A stretch of 64,000 nucleotides of DNA, taken from Acidimicrobiia bacterium. GTDB taxonomy: Bacteria > Actinomycetota > Acidimicrobiia > Spongiisociales > ZC4RG35. Positions 51,673-57,651 of this stretch are shown piece by piece. The DNA is taken from positions 214,903 through 278,902 of the forward strand of contig OZ244213.1 of the NCBI GenBank assembly GCA_965216905.1. The letters run 5' to 3'. Made by a program: the position numbers and the translations under genes. Every line of letters starts with the position of its first letter. Position 1 is the stretch's first letter. Under the pieces are notes generated by a model. That model worked only from the letters and a program-made list of their open reading frames with translations. It made no database searches and was not told the origin of the DNA.

Positions 51673-51869
51673 TGCGCGATGGCTCCTGGGGAACGGGTAC
51701 AAGGCCCGTCGGCGAGGGATCCCCGGCCTGAAGGCGTGGCCGGGACTCGTCCACGCCCATCCACCTGTCTCTGCCGAGCATCCGAAAGCCGGCCGATCCG
51801 CATAGGGTGGCATCCTCCACCGGTCCGCGACCACGTCGGCGAGGACCAATCCGAACTCCTCTCCTTGTG

Positions 51870-53075
51870 ATGCGTCTCCCTCGATTTCAATCTGAACGGT
51901 CGCGGTTCACGCAGTGGCGCACCGGACAAAGTCTCCGCAAGCGGATCGCCCTCCCCTTCTTGCTGGCCTCGACCCTCTTGGCTGCATGCGCACCGGCCAC
52001 CTCGGAGACGGCTTCGACGACCAGCCTCCCGTCGGTCACCTCAACCCAACCATCGGCCGCCACCGTTCCCCGAGCGGTCGAGATCCATCCGACCGCCGGC
52101 TCGTCACCGCTGCGCCCTCAACCGGCCGACGTGCCATATCCGGCCGACACGTGGCCGGTCGGTCCGTGGCCGGACGAGGTGGACCGGGAGACGATCGAGG
52201 ACGCCATCGCCGAGGCGATGGGCGACGGCATCGGGCCCAGAGTGCGGGCCGTGATCATCGTGCATCGGGGCGCGATCGTTCACGAGTCATACGGTGCCGA
52301 AGACGGCCGCGACACGGTGTTCCCGAGCTTCTCGGTCGCGAAGAGCATCGCCGCCCTGGCGGTCGGCATCGCCGTCGGTGACGGTCTGCTCGACCCGGCC
52401 GCGCCCGCTCCGGTGGCGGAGTGGCAGGCACCGGGCGACCACCGTGCCACGATCACCCTCGACGACCTCCTGCGGATGACCAGCGGCCTCCGGTGGCGTG
52501 AGCAGGATCAGCGAGGCGTCGACCTGCTCGCACTCCTCGCCGCCGAAGATACGGCCGCATACACCGCAACCAGGCCGCTGGAATCGACACCCGGGACCGT
52601 CTTCACCTACAGCACCGGGACCAGCAGCATCGTCGCTCGCCTTCTGGGAGAGGTGGTGGGCGGCAATGTCGAGGAGTTCCTCCGGTCTCGCCTGTTCGGA
52701 CCGATCGGCGCCGACGTCGAACTGCGGCTCGATGACGCCGGAACCTGGCTGGCCGGGCTGGCGGCCGACACCACCGCCCGAGGATATGCGCGGCTGGGGC
52801 TGCTGGTCCTCCGCGACGGGGTGTGGGACGGAGCCCAGATCCTGCCCGAAGGATGGGTCGATCGACTGCGAACACCGACGCCGGTGGAGCCCACCTACGG
52901 TGCTCATTGGCGGCTCGACCCCGACCGGCCAGGGGTTCTGTTCGCGCGCGGGCTTCGGGGTCAGATCATCGCGGTGGATCCGGGGGCGGACCTGGTGGTG
53001 GTCCAGACGGCAACCGACCGGGCCACGTCCGAGCGATTGAACGAGCTGATCCTCGGCGCATTCACCGCTCGGTGA
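51870..53075 (+). CDS. Serine hydrolase (beta-lactamase class C-like) lipoprotein
   Basis: Lipobox LLAAC; SxxK (SVAK), LLRMTSGL, FTYSTG, ARGLRGQ. Start uncertain. Confidence 0.85.
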   Translation: MRLPRFQSERSRFTQWRTGQSLRKRIALPFLLASTLLAACAPATSETASTTSLPSVTSTQPSAATVPRAVEIHPTAGSSPLRPQPADVPYPADTWPVGPWPDEVDRETIEDAIAEAMGDGIGPRVRAVIIVHRGAIVHESYGAEDGRDTVFPSFSVAKSIAALAVGIAVGDGLLDPAAPAPVAEWQAPGDHRATITLDDLLRMTSGLRWREQDQRGVDLLALLAAEDTAAYTATRPLESTPGTVFTYSTGTSSIVARLLGEVVGGNVEEFLRSRLFGPIGADVELRLDDAGTWLAGLAADTTARGYARLGLLVLRDGVWDGAQILPEGWVDRLRTPTPVEPTYGAHWRLDPDRPGVLFARGLRGQIIAVDPGADLVVVQTATDRATSERLNELILGAFTAR

Positions 53076-53652
53076 GCGGGCGCCTCGTCTCCTTCCGAGG
53101 ACTCCCCGCTGGTCGACGGCGTCCCCGAACCGTGCCACCGAGCACGCGGTAGGACGTGAGGAGGAGCACGACCGATACGAGCGCGACGGCGGTCAGCCGG
53201 TACCAGCCCGACGCGGCATCGGATCCGGCGGCCGCAGCGTGCATCGATGCCGCAAAGAAGGCGCCGAAGCTCGAGAGGTGGATGGCCCGCCACAGGCGCT
53301 TCGACAAGCGTCGCATCAGGAGCGACGTGACCTCCACCGCCACGAGGGCGTACATGGCCGCGACGCCCCAGGCCACCGCCTGTGGGCGCCACTCCGACTG
53401 CATCGGTATCAGGATCTCGCCGAGCCCGAACTGCACCGTCGAGTCGGCGATCAGAGCAGCGAGGTGCCCGGCGGTCATCAACACCGACATCGCGCCCAGC
53501 CAGCGATGCATGGCCAGCAGCCATGGGGGCCGGCGCAGTGAACCCATCACTCGCGTGGACAGCATCAGCCCCCAGGCCACCGACGCCGTCAACATGATCC
53601 ATGCGACCATGCCCGACGAGCGAGCCAGGTACCACCAGACCTGCGAGTTCAT
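53062..53652 (-). CDS. Ferric reductase-like transmembrane (heme b) protein
   Basis: WWYLARSSG, MHRWLG, GHLAAL, WRAIHLSSF, MHAA: four His in TM helices. Confidence 0.88.
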   Translation of the reverse strand: MNSQVWWYLARSSGMVAWIMLTASVAWGLMLSTRVMGSLRRPPWLLAMHRWLGAMSVLMTAGHLAALIADSTVQFGLGEILIPMQSEWRPQAVAWGVAAMYALVAVEVTSLLMRRLSKRLWRAIHLSSFGAFFAASMHAAAAGSDAASGWYRLTAVALVSVVLLLTSYRVLGGTVRGRRRPAGSPRKETRRPLTER

Positions 53653-54515
53653 GCCGCTCCGACCAGCCCGCGCGAAGCCAGGACGACGCCCGACGTGGAT
53701 TCGACGATGGCTCGATGGCCCAGCGCCTCCACCGCTCGCACGGCACGATCCGCGCTGGCCGCGATGCCGACCTTCGCCGCCACCTCCGCCAGCCATGCGC
53801 GCTCGGCGACCACGGTCACCGAGGACACATCGGTCGACCGGATCCGGCCCGTCCGCGGACAGACGTGGTGCCGGCTGTCGTCCGCAACGCCGCGCCAGCG
53901 GCGATGATGCGCGGTGCTCGTCGCCACTCCCCCGCCGCCGGCCAGTTCCATCACTGCCACGTGGTCCCGCGACCGATCGAGCACGGAGCGCTCAACCGCC
54001 ACCGTCCACGACCCGTTCGGACCTTCTCCGACCGCGCGGAGGTCACCACCGATGTTCACGAGCGCTCCGCTTGCGCCGCCTTCGACCAGTTCCTCGGCGA
54101 TCAGGTCGGCGGCGAGGCCCTTTCCGATGCCGCCGGGATCGAACACTGCACCGGGCGGAAGTCGCACGGTGCGTGCCCCGACATCGACGTGAATGTCAAG
54201 ACATCCCGGCGCGGGCTGCGCCATGGACTCGGCGTGACACGATCCCCCGCCCACCGGCAGCCGGGCCATCGCCACACCGACCGTCGGGTCGAAGGTACCT
54301 CCGGTGCGCCGCCAACCTCTGACCGAGCGGTCGACGAGTAGCAGGGTGCTGTGGTCGACCGGAACGGGGAGGCCGGCGGATCGATTCAGCCGGGAGATGT
54401 CGGAGCTGGGCATGAAGCGCGACCAGCAGCGCTCGAGGTGATCGAGACGGTCCGCCGCCTGCCGGAGAAGATCCTTCGGTCCACCGACGACGACCACGTG
54501 ACCGGTCGATGCCAT
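53649..54515 (-). CDS. apbE: FAD:protein FMN transferase
   Basis: WSRFMPSSDISRLN, FDPTV, DPGGIGKG, VNIGGDLR, GVATST, HHVCPRTG. Confidence 0.9.
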   Translation of the reverse strand: MASTGHVVVVGGPKDLLRQAADRLDHLERCWSRFMPSSDISRLNRSAGLPVPVDHSTLLLVDRSVRGWRRTGGTFDPTVGVAMARLPVGGGSCHAESMAQPAPGCLDIHVDVGARTVRLPPGAVFDPGGIGKGLAADLIAEELVEGGASGALVNIGGDLRAVGEGPNGSWTVAVERSVLDRSRDHVAVMELAGGGGVATSTAHHRRWRGVADDSRHHVCPRTGRIRSTDVSSVTVVAERAWLAEVAAKVGIAASADRAVRAVEALGHRAIVESTSGVVLASRGLVGAA

Positions 54516-54534
54516 GCCGGCGATCGGTCCACGA

Positions 54535-54861
54535 TCAACCGCTGCCACGAGTCACCGTATCGGGTTGGCGTGCGGGCGACGGCACCGGAGCGGAGGCGAC
54601 CTTCGGTGCGGCATGCGTCACGGCGACGGAGCGTTGGATGTCGGCGACGATGAGCGGCCGGACGACCACGATCTCGGCATCCTGTCCGAGCGGTGCCCCG
54701 CCGGACGACGTCGCCGACGGGTCCGAGGTCATGCCCAACCCGGCGGTCATCCCGAACACCAGCGTGAGGCCGAGCCCGGCGACGCCGATTCGGGAGGTGG
54801 CCGCCGGGCTCGACGAGTCGGTACGCATTGCCGGAGGCCGTCGAACGGGCCGGTCAGTCAT
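54535..54861 (-). CDS. Small single-TM protein ending in DTVTRGSG
   Basis: ATGACTGA overlap with the upstream gene; one hydrophobic segment; Pro/Ala-rich linker. Confidence 0.65.
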   Translation of the reverse strand: MTDRPVRRPPAMRTDSSSPAATSRIGVAGLGLTLVFGMTAGLGMTSDPSATSSGGAPLGQDAEIVVVRPLIVADIQRSVAVTHAAPKVASAPVPSPARQPDTVTRGSG

Positions 54862-55501
54862 CCTCTCGCTCTTCGTGATCGTCGTCGTCGGAATCATCGT
54901 CGCGATCGTCGTTCTCATCGCGGTCGTCATCGTGGTCGTCGTCGTGGTCATCGTCCTCGTCACGATCGTCGTCGTCCTCGTCGTCGTGGTCGGTACTGGA
55001 CGTCGCGGTGGCGACCGAGGTCGACGTCCCGTCCGGGATCGTCGTGACGCTCGGGTCCGGCGTCGATGTTCCCGTCGTCGGGGTGCTCGTCGTAGCTGCG
55101 GACGACCGTTCCACTACGTCGACGGCGACCGCATCGTCGACGACCTGGGCCGAGAAGATCAGGTGTCGACTTCCGGACCTGAGTTCGACCTCCACGCCGT
55201 CGGACCCGTCGCGCTCGACCGCATCCCAGCCTTCGGCATCCACCGAGACGAGCGAGAGCATTTCCCCGTTCCGTTCCAAGGTCACCACGCCGACGTCGGG
55301 AATCTGATACCCGACGGCCTCGGAATCCGCGCCGAAGGAGGGCGACGGCGAGACAGAGGTGCTGAGATCCACCACCGCCGAGACATCACCGACCGGGGGT
55401 GTGGACTCCAGGATCCCGAGGTTGGCGGCATACGCCACCGTCCCGGCAAGCGCCACCGAGACGATGGACAGTGCGGTCATCAAGGCGGTCTTGTGCTTCA
55501 C
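54854..55501 (-). CDS. Secreted protein with Thr/Ser linker and Asp/His-rich C-terminal tail
   Basis: Signal peptide MKHKTALMTALSIVSVALAG; tail DHDDEDDDDRDEDDDHDDDHDDD...HEEREDD. Confidence 0.75.
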   Translation of the reverse strand: MKHKTALMTALSIVSVALAGTVAYAANLGILESTPPVGDVSAVVDLSTSVSPSPSFGADSEAVGYQIPDVGVVTLERNGEMLSLVSVDAEGWDAVERDGSDGVEVELRSGSRHLIFSAQVVDDAVAVDVVERSSAATTSTPTTGTSTPDPSVTTIPDGTSTSVATATSSTDHDDEDDDDRDEDDDHDDDHDDDRDENDDRDDDSDDDDHEEREDD

Positions 55502-55618: not shown

Positions 55619-56299
55619 ATGCTGGGGGCGATGCGACTCCTCGTCGTCGAAGATGATCGGTCCATAGCCGACCCCCTCACCGATGGGCTACGCCGGCACG
55701 GATTCGACGTGCACTGGGTGGGCACCGGGGCAGACGCCCTCAACGCCACCATCCCCGATCTGGTGGTACTCGACCTCGGGCTCCCCGACCTCGACGGCCA
55801 GGTGGTGTGCCGGCGGCTGCGAGCCGAGAGCGACGTCCCGATCATCGTCGTGACCGCCAGATCGGATGAGATCGACCGTGTCACGTTGCTGGAACTCGGC
55901 GCCGACGACTACGTGGTCAAGCCATTCGGCTTCGCCGAGCTCGTCGCCAGGATCAGAGCGGTCCTGCGAAGAGCCGGATCGAGCGAAGCGGCCGCCGATC
56001 CGACCGGCCCGATCGAAGCTGGCCGCGTCCGAGTCGATCGGCGGACACGACAGGTCACCAGCGACGCGATCGAGGTGCCGCTCACTCCCAAGGAGTACGA
56101 CCTGCTGGTGGCGCTCGCCGAGGATCACGGGGCGGTCATCACCCGCGCCCAGCTCTTGGCGACCGTCTGGGACGACGATGGGTGGAGTTCCGGCAAGACG
56201 CTCGACGTCCACGTTGCATCCCTCCGTCGAAAACTCGGCGACCCGGGCCTGATCGAGACGATCCGCGGAGTGGGATACCGCCTGGCGGCCGACCCATGA
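55619..56299 (+). CDS. OmpR-family response regulator
   Basis: LLVVEDD, VLDLGLPD, GADDYVVKPF, LTPKEYDLL, IETIRGVGYR. Confidence 0.95.
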   Translation: MLGAMRLLVVEDDRSIADPLTDGLRRHGFDVHWVGTGADALNATIPDLVVLDLGLPDLDGQVVCRRLRAESDVPIIVVTARSDEIDRVTLLELGADDYVVKPFGFAELVARIRAVLRRAGSSEAAADPTGPIEAGRVRVDRRTRQVTSDAIEVPLTPKEYDLLVALAEDHGAVITRAQLLATVWDDDGWSSGKTLDVHVASLRRKLGDPGLIETIRGVGYRLAADP

Positions 56300-57651
56300 C
56301 CCGCCGGCTCATCGTCTCCTACCTCTTGATCACCGTCTTCACGTTGCTGGTCCTGGAGATCCCGCTGGGGCGGTTCATCGCCCGCTTCGAGCTTGCCCGG
56401 ATCGAGACCGGATTCGAACGGAACGCCAGCGTCCTGGCCACGATCTACGAGGACGCGCTCGACCGGAACGAGCCCTACGACCCTCGGCACGCAGCCGAGT
56501 ACGCCGCCGACGCCGGCGTCCGGGTCGTGATCGTGGACGATACCGGCACCTCCATCATCGACACCGACGAACCCGCCAACCAGGACTTCTCGAACCGTCC
56601 CGAGATCGAGGCCGCGCTCGCCGGCGAACGTGTCGCCGACACGCGAGATTCGGTGACGTTGGGGCGGCCGCTGTCGTATGTGGCAGTGCCGGTGGCCTCC
56701 GGTGGTGAGGTGCATGGGGCGGTACGGATCACTTTCAATCCCAAGGACCTCGCCAACCGCATCGAGAACCATTGGCGCCGGCTGATCGCCGTGGGGGCCG
56801 TCGTGCTGGCCGCCGTGGCCGCGGTCGGGTGGATCATCGCCCGGTCGGTCACCAAACCGCTCCGAGCGATGCAGGAGGCGGCCGTCTCGATGGGAGGAGG
56901 CGACCTCTCGCGCCGGATCGACTCCACCGACGCACCACCCGAGGTGGCCGCCCTCGCCGATGGCTTCAACACGATGGCGGCTCGCCTCGACGCCCTCCTC
57001 GCCCGCCAGCGCCGTTTCGTCTCCGATGCCTCCCACGAGCTGCGCACCCCGCTGACGGCGCTCCGACTCCGTCTCGAGAACGTGATGGATGAGGCAAACG
57101 AAGGCCAACTGGCAGACCTCGAGGCGGCACTGGCGGAGACCGACCGGCTATCGGAACTCGTCAGCCACCTCCTCACCATCGCCCGGGCCGAGGATGGCAC
57201 CGTCGAACTCGAACCGACCGACCTGATCACGACGGCGCGAGATCGGGTCGGCCTGTGGGAGGCCGTCGCCGAGGAGGCCCAGGTGGAGCTGCGCTTCGAG
57301 TCCGCATCCGTGTCGGCAACGGTTCACACCGTTCCCGGCTCGATCGATCAGATCGTCGACAATCTCGTCTCGAACGCCATCGGCGCCTCCGGACCGGACG
57401 GCAAGGTGCTTGTGTCGGTGGCCTCCGACTCCGATCACGCGCAGCTCATCGTCGAAGACACCGGTGCCGGCATGCCTGCCGACGACCGGGCTCGTGCCTT
57501 TGACCGATTCTGGCGCGCCGACCATCACAGCCCCGGGACCGGGCTCGGCCTGGCGATCGTGCGGGAGCTGGCGGAAGCCGGGGGTGGGACCGCGGACCTG
57601 GGCGAGTCTTCTTCCGGTGGCATTCGCGCCACCGTCACCTTTCCCTACTGA
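56296..57651 (+). CDS. HAMP-domain sensor histidine kinase
   Basis: Two TM segments, DASHELRTPLT, DNLVSNA, DTGAGM, GTGLGL. Confidence 0.94.
   Translation: MTRRLIVSYLLITVFTLLVLEIPLGRFIARFELARIETGFERNASVLATIYEDALDRNEPYDPRHAAEYAADAGVRVVIVDDTGTSIIDTDEPANQDFSNRPEIEAALAGERVADTRDSVTLGRPLSYVAVPVASGGEVHGAVRITFNPKDLANRIENHWRRLIAVGAVVLAAVAAVGWIIARSVTKPLRAMQEAAVSMGGGDLSRRIDSTDAPPEVAALADGFNTMAARLDALLARQRRFVSDASHELRTPLTALRLRLENVMDEANEGQLADLEAALAETDRLSELVSHLLTIARAEDGTVELEPTDLITTARDRVGLWEAVAEEAQVELRFESASVSATVHTVPGSIDQIVDNLVSNAIGASGPDGKVLVSVASDSDHAQLIVEDTGAGMPADDRARAFDRFWRADHHSPGTGLGLAIVRELAEAGGGTADLGESSSGGIRATVTFPY

Follow-up and report, generated by a model that had tools for sequence, protein, structure and literature searches.

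Flavinylation by ApbE, an enzyme of the flavin adenine dinucleotide (FAD):protein flavin mononucleotide (FMN) transferase family, is a major route for electrons leaving bacterial cells. A survey that covered the MsrQ-like flavinylation systems (Meheust et al. 2021, eLife, PMC8238504) kept a gene cluster only if its ApbE, FMN_bind, DUF2271 or DUF3570 was predicted to have a signal peptide or lipobox, and it left 4% of genomes with an unexplained orphan apbE. Furthermore, a 7-residue "flavin-tag" (Tong et al. 2021, reviewed in PMC12052999) works best at a terminus and accepts Ser as the acceptor residue; exchange of its Asp for Ala has little effect, and a Gly-to-Ala or Ala-to-Val exchange leaves about 50% flavinylation (PMC12052999). 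Here, we analyze an apbE gene in a stretch of 64,000 nucleotides (nt) from an Acidimicrobiia bacterium (contig OZ244213.1 of assembly GCA_965216905.1, positions 214,903 to 278,902 of the forward strand; hereafter the window), which lies in a four-gene operon with genes for an acidic protein, a small one-helix protein and a membrane cytochrome. The small protein is probably a new, domain-less carrier of covalent flavin that works with the cytochrome, as judged from its sequence and gene context. The ApbE of this operon has no signal peptide or lipobox, and FMN_bind and DUF2271 were not found (DUF3570 was not searched), so that the published survey would have missed clusters of the window's type, which have no such signal in the qualifying families.

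The operon occupies 53062-55501 of the window on the minus strand, and its four genes are arranged head to tail and translationally coupled. They encode a secreted or anchored acidic protein (54854-55501, minus strand; 215 amino acids (aa), from the open reading frame (ORF) and its translation), the small protein proposed as the ApbE substrate (54535-54861, minus strand; 108 aa), ApbE (53649-54548, minus strand; 299 aa; Pfam PF02424), and an MsrQ-like or ferric-reductase-like putative di-haem b membrane protein (53062-53652, minus strand; 196 aa; Pfam PF01794), referred to below as the cytochrome. The GC content of third codon positions tracks each of the four frames in turn, the small ORF included, with a value of 0.84 in the frame of the latter. 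The real start of the small gene is ATG 54861, which overlaps the stop codon of the acidic gene by 8 nt (ATGACTGA; GAGGATGACTGA). The GTG start of apbE at 54548 overlaps the small gene by 14 nt, and the likely start of the cytochrome gene, ATG 53652, forms a 4-nt ATGA overlap with the apbE stop. Note that a 142-aa ORF at 54535-54963, as listed, starts too far upstream: the 34 codons at its beginning belong to the acidic tail in another frame, and the Thr/Met-rich extension at 54862-54963 (minus strand; MTRTMTTTTTTMTT...) is the GAC/GAT-rich acidic tail read out of frame, outside the small protein.

The small protein and its C-terminal peptide

The small protein reads MTDRPVRRPPAMRTDSSSPAATSR-IGVAGLGLTLVFGMTAGLG-MTSDPS...APVPSPARQPDTVTRGSG. 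An Arg-rich N-terminus (VRRPPAMR) is followed by one hydrophobic anchor helix (IGVAGLGLTLVFGMTAGLG, residues 25-43 by hydropathy scan; 54733-54789, minus strand), and then by a Pro/Ala/Ser/Thr tail of about 65 residues. The C-terminus, ...PARQPDTVTRGSG before the stop codon at 54535-54537, ends in D-T-V-T-R-G-S-G (54538-54561, minus strand), so that the sequence confirms the ending given in the initial annotation. The proposed FMN acceptor is Ser107 (54541-54543), and ARQPDTVTRGSG is a candidate acceptor segment for use as a synthetic peptide in an ApbE reaction. No Pfam or NCBIfam family matched the small protein. Outside ApbE's own TGG-FDP motif, its C-terminus is the sole match of the [ST]-x-[GA]-S type in the four proteins. 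The peptide had been matched to the canonical D-x-x-[S/T]-G-A-[S/T]; the spacing and positions -6, -3 and 0 of D-T-V-T-R-G-S do fit that motif, whereas Arg at -2 and Gly at -1 do not. Though not canonical, the terminal peptide is likely to work like an ApbE recognition motif.

Conservation of the peptide was examined in 80 apbE loci with enough upstream sequence, on contigs from one genome per species; the closest ApbE relatives are about 50% identical to the window's enzyme and come from Acidimicrobiia metagenome bins. The screen required an ORF ending at the apbE start, with one hydrophobic segment and the C-terminus [ST]-x-[GAS]-S plus 0-1 residue. Anchored, disordered proteins that passed it were present upstream of apbE in 56 of the 80 loci, with C-termini such as NTSSHGS, DTSSHAS, MTRSRGS and KTSGSR and, in a few members that are canonical at this position, HTVTGAS, NSNSGAS and TPTTGAS; Thr or Ser at -5 is also given for 47 of the 56. 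Reading the remaining loci by eye adds three more (L002 with an assembly frameshift, L032 ending in VTRTRASF and L080 ending in TQTRGS) as well as variants in L071 and L074. When the 56 members were aligned on the last Ser (position 0, Ser in 56), position -7 was Pro or Ala in 42, -5 was Thr in 33 and Ser in 8, -3 was Ser or Thr in 56, -2 was variable (His, Arg, Gly, Ser), and -1 was Gly in 35, Ala in 12 and Ser in 9; positions -3, -1 and 0 were fixed by the screen, so that only -7, -5 and -2 are independent observations. As background, 60 of 2679 other ORFs in the related loci (about 2%) have the core motif at their end, and 3 of 4057 likely-coding ORFs in the window's genome have the full motif there. 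The terminal motif is conserved in proteins upstream of actinobacterial apbE, and its frequency there is far above chance.

A second, unbiased sample comprised every long-type apbE copy in 121 genomes of the class, one per species. A motif ORF was found for 40 of the 91 long-type copies, and about 8 more copies have near variants (VTTTKTS, TTTGPS, RSSES). Among the genomes without FMN_bind, 24 of 47 have at least one motif ORF. A second kind of tail was also seen upstream of apbE, in four loci (L128, L162, L158 and L183): here, the anchored proteins are rich in Pro and Thr and finish with a short loop flanked by Cys (CTGSQC, CKGSKCP, SPSGTVTCY and PSGATVQC, the last of which contains the canonical SGAT).

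The small ORF might be no real gene, the motif being the apbE initiation region, with its start codon or ribosome-binding site, read in another frame. In fact, the apbE start lies within 42 of the 56 motif ORFs, with an overlap of 11 or 14 nt, and G-S is then M-A-A/V in the other frame. The 11-nt overlap (xATGGCAGCTGA; 33 loci) reads x-G-S-stop in one frame and M-A-A-D/E in the other, and the 14-nt overlap (9 loci including the window) adds one residue after the Ser. However, 14 loci in which the two genes overlap by 4 or 1 nt, or lie 1-7 nt apart, still have the motif; their C-termini include SSTHGS, TTTRGS, SKSSGS, TTVSRAS and TTASAGS. The ApbE N-terminus varies freely in those 14 loci (MPATE, MSLLIG, MTAGD, MHIAE, MDTVV) while the motif stays, indicating that the constraint stems from the small protein and not from ApbE. 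The Ser at -3 is encoded by AGY and TCN alike, the Thr at -5 varies at its third base, and the motif codons, which sit at the expected position of the ribosome-binding site, are yet not purine-rich. The Streptomyces and Nocardia proteins contain the motif twice, with an internal copy (PVTRSSGSGC) 40-50 residues upstream and divergent linkers around it; the SSGSGC of the internal Streptomyces copy also contains Cys. Non-overlapping loci, codon usage and internal copies thus rule out a by-product of the apbE start. The third-position GC content of the small frame, the homology of its anchor to FMN_bind proteins (described below) and its prediction by gene callers in relatives also argue for a real gene, and we reject the non-gene reading, to which we give almost no weight. 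It was likewise rejected that the small ORF is an N-terminal anchor of ApbE split off by a sequencing error or a programmed frameshift: the best 120 ApbE relatives have 277-336 aa and no N-terminal extension, and dozens of assemblies show the same two separate genes, which overlap by 14, 11, 4 or 1 nt or are 1-7 nt apart.

The anchor of the small protein has counterparts of its own. In most members, RRRHPAxRxRR stands just ahead of the helix; the window's anchor is a diverged copy, in which VRRPPAMR is followed by a 12-residue insert, and three members have a lipobox instead of a plain helix (LAAC in one, LTGC in two). FMN_bind subunits of canonical clusters in the same class have the same N-terminus (..KRRHAAQKSRVAALAMSVS.., ..RRRHPAKHSRAAALALSFV..), after which a Ser/Thr/Pro linker leads to a globular domain with VSGATYTS. 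The only matches of a hidden Markov model built from the small-protein anchors alone were four of these FMN_bind subunits, with E-values of 2.5e-7 to 1e-4; it matched none of the 4057 ORFs of the window's genome. Because the anchor matches the N-terminus of that subunit, the small protein looks like an FMN-binding subunit without its globular domain, and it is best read as an MsrQ-like FMN-binding subunit that lost this domain and kept the anchor, the linker and a terminal acceptor peptide. The homology also lends support to the tethered arm beside a membrane cytochrome that the initial annotation had proposed.

The charge summed over the 56 members is +261 in the 15 residues before the helix and -17 in the 15 residues after it; by the positive-inside rule, this bias predicts an N-terminus on the inside and a tail on the outer face, and the three lipobox members also place the tail there. 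The family has Arg pairs as well as hydrophobic segments rich in Gly, Ala and Ser, which are a hint of twin-arginine translocation (Tat) export of the small proteins; the twin-arginine consensus S/T-R-R-x-F-L-K is not matched. Many tails also contain a short, beta-strand-like hydrophobic stretch (EIVVVRPLIV, RVVVIIKRR, QIVVVIHPG, VVVVRRHHVV), which was seen in the window at 54640-54700 (minus strand) and in ten related loci. Since the stretch occurs mostly in loci that encode the beta domain of the acidic protein, it may dock onto that domain. The Streptomyces members of the small-protein family are annotated as "hypothetical protein", and a word-based homologue search with the Streptomyces small protein retrieved only two "hypothetical proteins".

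ApbE, the cytochrome and the search for other substrates

The host genome is complete (3.48 Mb, single contig), and a six-frame profile search of it found a single ApbE. FMN_bind was found neither in the six-frame genome search at E<=1 nor in the four operon proteins at E<=0.1. DUF2271 and NqrB/RnfD gave nothing above cut-off genome-wide; the profiles of DUF3570 (PF12094), Flavodoxin_4 and FMN_red were not run, and the flavinylated forms of these families were covered only indirectly by a motif scan. The regular expression D..[ST]GA[ST] had six matches among the 4057 likely-coding ORFs, namely a GltB-like glutamate synthase, an FtsH-like protein and four unrelated or spurious ones. The shorter [ST]GA[ST] is absent from all four operon proteins, and a scan of 84 loci found no canonical motif beside apbE, giving only P-type ATPase motifs and the like. 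Pfam and the regular expressions therefore agree with the earlier statement that the four genes contain neither a canonical motif nor an FMN-binding domain. A canonical substrate elsewhere in the genome, which could have explained ApbE differently, was likewise not found among FMN_bind, DUF2271 and NqrB/RnfD, with DUF3570 outside the search.

Among the 121 class genomes, ApbE is present in 65 and FMN_bind in 15, all 15 of which have ApbE; 50 of the 65 ApbE genomes are without FMN_bind. Orphan ApbE is thus the rule in Acidimicrobiia, where the gap is much wider than the 4% of ApbE genomes that the two large surveys left without a substrate. The highest-scoring ApbEs of the class (about 245-250 bits), found in two loci (L097 and L098), directly follow an NqrB/RnfD-like gene (..FFIVTDPTTSP..), so that ApbE occurs in no fewer than three contexts in the class: Rnf/Nqr-like, FMN_bind and small-tail.

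The window's ApbE matched Pfam PF02424 with an E-value of 4.5e-42 and 144.8 bits (cut-off 25.6) over 253 of the 266 profile positions, and matched solved ApbE/FmnB structures with E-values of 1e-13 to 2e-9. Its N-terminus, MAAVDRGPIAGMASTGH, leads straight into the first conserved strand and fits the clade consensus MAAExxFRAMGSDAH. In V. cholerae numbering, the proposed catalytic triad of ApbE is Ser241-His257-Asp285 (PMC12052999). Every member of the clade has the triad Ser (A-T-S) and His (H-H), and the equivalent of Asp285 is an invariant Glu (A-E), a conservative change. Identity to the window's ApbE is 41-52% for ApbEs associated with a small protein, versus 24-34% over partial lengths for FMN_bind-associated ApbEs of the same class. 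This split into subfamilies is consistent with co-variation of enzyme and substrate.

The cytochrome scored 33.9 bits against PF01794 (cut-off 28). It has five predicted helices and no nicotinamide adenine dinucleotide (NAD)/FAD domain, and four His residues, arranged as H-x13-H and H-x12-H pairs in two helices, are invariant among 55 homologues. By its predicted helices, the protein matches helices 2-6 of NADPH oxidase (NOX), which would place its C-terminus inside. Relatives fuse FNR-type and Fer2 domains at this C-terminal end.

Proposed mechanism and rival explanations

We favour, with moderate confidence, a reading in which the terminal Ser is flavinylated by the adjacent ApbE and the operon encodes a stripped-down MsrQ-like electron-transfer module. 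The 108-aa protein, with its anchor, its disordered tether of about 65 residues and its acceptor peptide, would stand in for the usual FMN-binding subunit. With FAD as the donor, ApbE would attach FMN via a phosphoester bond to the terminal Ser (Ser107, DTVTRGS-G), and the anchor would keep the small protein beside the di-haem cytochrome. The flavin on the tail would then take electrons from the outer haem and hand them to an acceptor outside the membrane, probably metal ions on the co-encoded acidic protein, or on its Met-rich counterpart in Streptomyces. Because the enzyme is without an export signal, the most economical reading, although a guess, would be that the tail is flavinylated in the cytoplasm and exported afterwards. 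In this scheme, we infer the acceptor residue, its flavinylation, the direction of the electrons and the final acceptor alike.

Several observations weigh against flavinylation of the tail by this enzyme. No signal peptide, lipobox or hydrophobic leader was found in the window's ApbE or in 18 aligned relatives; as the enzyme is signal-less and the tail is predicted outside, the two would be on opposite sides of the membrane unless the tail is modified before export. In the window copy alone, Cys replaces the nearly invariant Asp two residues past the catalytic His (HHVCP at residues ~226-232, 53850-53870 on the minus strand, versus HH[LIV][IV]DP in all aligned relatives). The canonical Gly at -2 and Ala at -1 are not kept in the family, in which -2 is His, Arg, Gly or Ser and -1 is mostly Gly, and only 5 of the 56 relatives have the "strictly conserved" Asp that the window has at -6. 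For about half of the class's apbE copies of this type, no motif ORF lies directly upstream. Finally, the last Ser is nearly always AGC followed by TGA, non-overlapping loci included; because AGC-TGA persists without an overlap, some nucleotide-level constraint or shared ancestry would contribute to the motif.

As for localisation, most characterised ApbEs have a signal peptide or lipobox and are extracytosolic; cytosolic ones also exist, as in Klebsiella (PMC12052999). The ApbEs of canonical FMN_bind clusters in this class have no signal peptide or lipobox either, and since these clusters share the paradox, it does not single out the small-protein hypothesis. Either flavinylation would take place in the cytoplasm before export, or ApbE would leave the cell by an unrecognised route.

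The small protein could instead be a mere tether or assembly partner, with a C-terminus that serves as a docking peptide for ApbE, as a processing signal or as the site of some other Ser modification. Its anchor is homologous to that of a subunit sitting beside the cytochrome, the motif departs from the canonical G-A, ApbE is without a membrane anchor, and the need for a free C-terminus (0-1 residue after the motif) would also fit a docking peptide. However, ApbE would then be left without a substrate in a complete genome, a tail on the outside cannot dock a cytoplasmic enzyme, and several members have a fully canonical [ST]GA[ST] at the exact position, so that we consider this explanation unlikely. 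A target within the cytochrome, by analogy with NqrB/RnfD, would be the Thr/Ser of an H-x3-A-G-[T/S]-D loop past the outer haem ligand. This loop is predicted to face outward beside the outer haem and is nearly invariant (Ala in 52, Gly in 54, Thr/Ser in 51 and Asp in 53 of the 55 homologues), and the cytochrome, whose homologues occur in 61 of the 121 class genomes, is never found there without ApbE (61/61). Two clade members nevertheless have Glu at the Thr/Ser position, and the window's own loop, AAAGSD, has no Ser or Thr at -3. Cytochromes of canonical FMN_bind clusters share the G-x-D turn with Thr, Ser or Pro, suggesting that the loop is structural, and flavinylation of the cytochrome seems quite improbable to us. 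The acidic protein is less likely as a target: it has no [ST]-x-[GA]-S-type site and is present in a subclade only.

It is also conceivable, though in our view highly doubtful, that the signal-less ApbE clade flavinylates nothing and is a cytoplasmic, FAD-binding or FAD-hydrolysing (Ftp-like) partner that feeds the inner face of the cytochrome. The window's cytochrome is without a NAD/FAD domain and would therefore need a cytoplasmic donor, and the missing signal peptide as well as the clade-wide replacement of the catalytic Asp by Glu could be understood in this way. However, the enzyme retains Ser and His of the transferase triad, ApbE and the small protein both persist in relatives whose cytochromes already have FNR-type and Fer2 domains, and the conserved C-terminal motif would be left unexplained.

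The preferred reading, flavinylation of the terminal Ser, can be extended to a wider proposal that we put forward only tentatively. Actinobacteria, chiefly Acidimicrobiia and sporadically Streptomyces and Nocardia, may use disordered, membrane- or lipid-anchored proteins with a C-terminal FMN heptapeptide as natural "flavin-tag" carriers; a signal-less ApbE subfamily would load them before export, and the flavin would shuttle electrons from the di-haem protein to an extracellular metal. If this is true, it would be the first case of a flavin electron carrier that has no flavin-binding fold at all, a covalent flavin would not need a protein pocket to function, and about half of the orphan-ApbE genomes in the class would be covered. 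T-x-S-x-G-S-COOH and its own ApbE would then also offer natural, orthogonal enzyme-tag pairs for protein labelling. The proposal raises the question of how a cytoplasmic flavin transferase serves an exported substrate.

Genomic context and comparison with known systems

The acidic protein has an N-terminal hydrophobic signal or anchor (..ANLGIL), a Thr/Ser/Pro linker and an Asp/Glu/His-rich tail ending in EDD, and no Pfam or NCBIfam family matched it. In an AlphaFold2 model, residues ~61-133 form a 7-strand, all-beta domain with a predicted local distance difference test score (pLDDT) of ~95. A cryptic FMN_bind- or PepSY-like domain is unsupported here, as Foldseek against the PDB gave nothing at E<0.1; the only Pfam hints for the beta domain were sub-threshold, to DUF1775/YcnI-like (19-22 bits). 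The domain (55100-55339 of the window, minus strand) belongs to a large uncharacterised family, with 1568 representative clusters found at E<=1e-3, many of which have it two to four times in tandem. Among the related loci, 10 others have it, a subclade only. A word-based homologue search with it retrieved only itself.

In Streptomyces iakyrus (L063:242-3593), Met-rich secreted proteins are encoded at the position of the acidic protein, next to an HMA-domain P1B ATPase and an extracytoplasmic function (ECF) sigma factor. More generally, the operon lies downstream of an HMA-domain P1B-type ATPase in Streptomyces and Nocardia loci (also in L055, L069 and L084), with an ECF sigma factor after it, and the acidic protein is replaced in Streptomyces and Nocardia by secreted Met/Gly/Asp-rich proteins (MEMRMWMEAMRMGMEAGMNM...). 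Such a composition is typical of Cu(I) binders, and this context suggests a link between the operon and copper handling. One related contig encodes a P-type ATPase with a hemerythrin domain. From the Met-rich counterparts, the ATPase neighbours and the Asp/Glu/His tail, we can only infer a possible role in extracytoplasmic Fe or Cu reduction or handling.

Upstream of the operon and divergent from it are genes for an OmpR-family response regulator (55619-56299, plus strand; Pfam Response_reg and Trans_reg_C) and a sensor histidine kinase (56296-57651, plus strand; Pfam Cache-like, HAMP, HisKA and HATPase_c). ORFs and Pfam matches thus bear out the initial annotation of a four-gene minus-strand operon divergent from an OmpR pair. 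A divergent or adjacent regulator/kinase pair recurs in many related loci. Three contigs that were looked up share the window's layout. It is clearest in L004, where genes for an acidic protein of 206 aa, a small protein of 124 aa, ApbE and the cytochrome accompany the divergent OmpR pair, with the same 14-nt overlap between the small gene and apbE. Another locus (L003:7795-10819) contains two modules in a row, the second of which comprises a 96-aa small protein ending in SSGGS, a more divergent ApbE, a cytochrome and a NuoF-like NADH-binding protein. At the other end of the window's operon, the 3' end of the cytochrome gene (53062-53075) overlaps the 3' end of a convergent beta-lactamase-family gene (51807-53075, plus strand) by 14 nt. 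No terminator-like hairpin was found between these two genes, and a scan of the operon for promoters and terminators gave nothing.

Literature searches found no description of domain-less ApbE substrates. The initial annotation had called the system "minimal, possibly undescribed", which agrees with those searches; on the other hand, the system is not wholly new, being a form of the MsrQ-like flavinylation system that is already known. As in MsrQ-like systems (PMC8238504), apbE adjoins the gene for a PF01794 di-haem membrane protein, here with the 4-nt overlap, and the window's relatives have a C-terminal NAD/FAD (+Fer2) fusion or a NuoF-like neighbour. As in the actinobacterial systems of this type, the third subunit is anchored by a module of RRHPAxRxR plus a helix. 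In contrast to them, the small protein is without FMN_bind (PF04205) and has only an anchor, a linker and a terminal heptapeptide, and its ApbE belongs to a separate subfamily, 24-34% identical to FMN_bind-associated ApbEs. DUF2271 and DUF3570 substrates (PMC8238504) are likewise conserved neighbours of orphan apbE genes with a conserved S/T-G-A-S/T-like site; those are, however, folded domains of Gram-negative bacteria, and the window's genome is without DUF2271 (DUF3570 was not searched).

With the flavin-tag (PMC12052999), the small protein would share a 7-residue ApbE recognition peptide at a terminus; in the tag, this peptide suffices for covalent attachment of FMN and needs no folded flavin-binding domain. 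The tag is man-made and canonical (DxxSGAT), whereas the peptide described here is natural, strictly C-terminal and of the form T-x-[ST]-x-[GAS]-S. In nature, the nearest parallel comes from some FMN_red proteins (Huang et al. 2024, mSystems, PMC11334425), which are flavinylated on a disordered C-terminal extension and resemble the small protein in this placement of the site. These FMN_red proteins are from Firmicutes, have canonical motifs and keep a globular domain with a pocket for the tethered flavin, whereas the putative carrier described here consists of an anchor, a disordered tether and a terminal peptide, without a flavin-binding fold.

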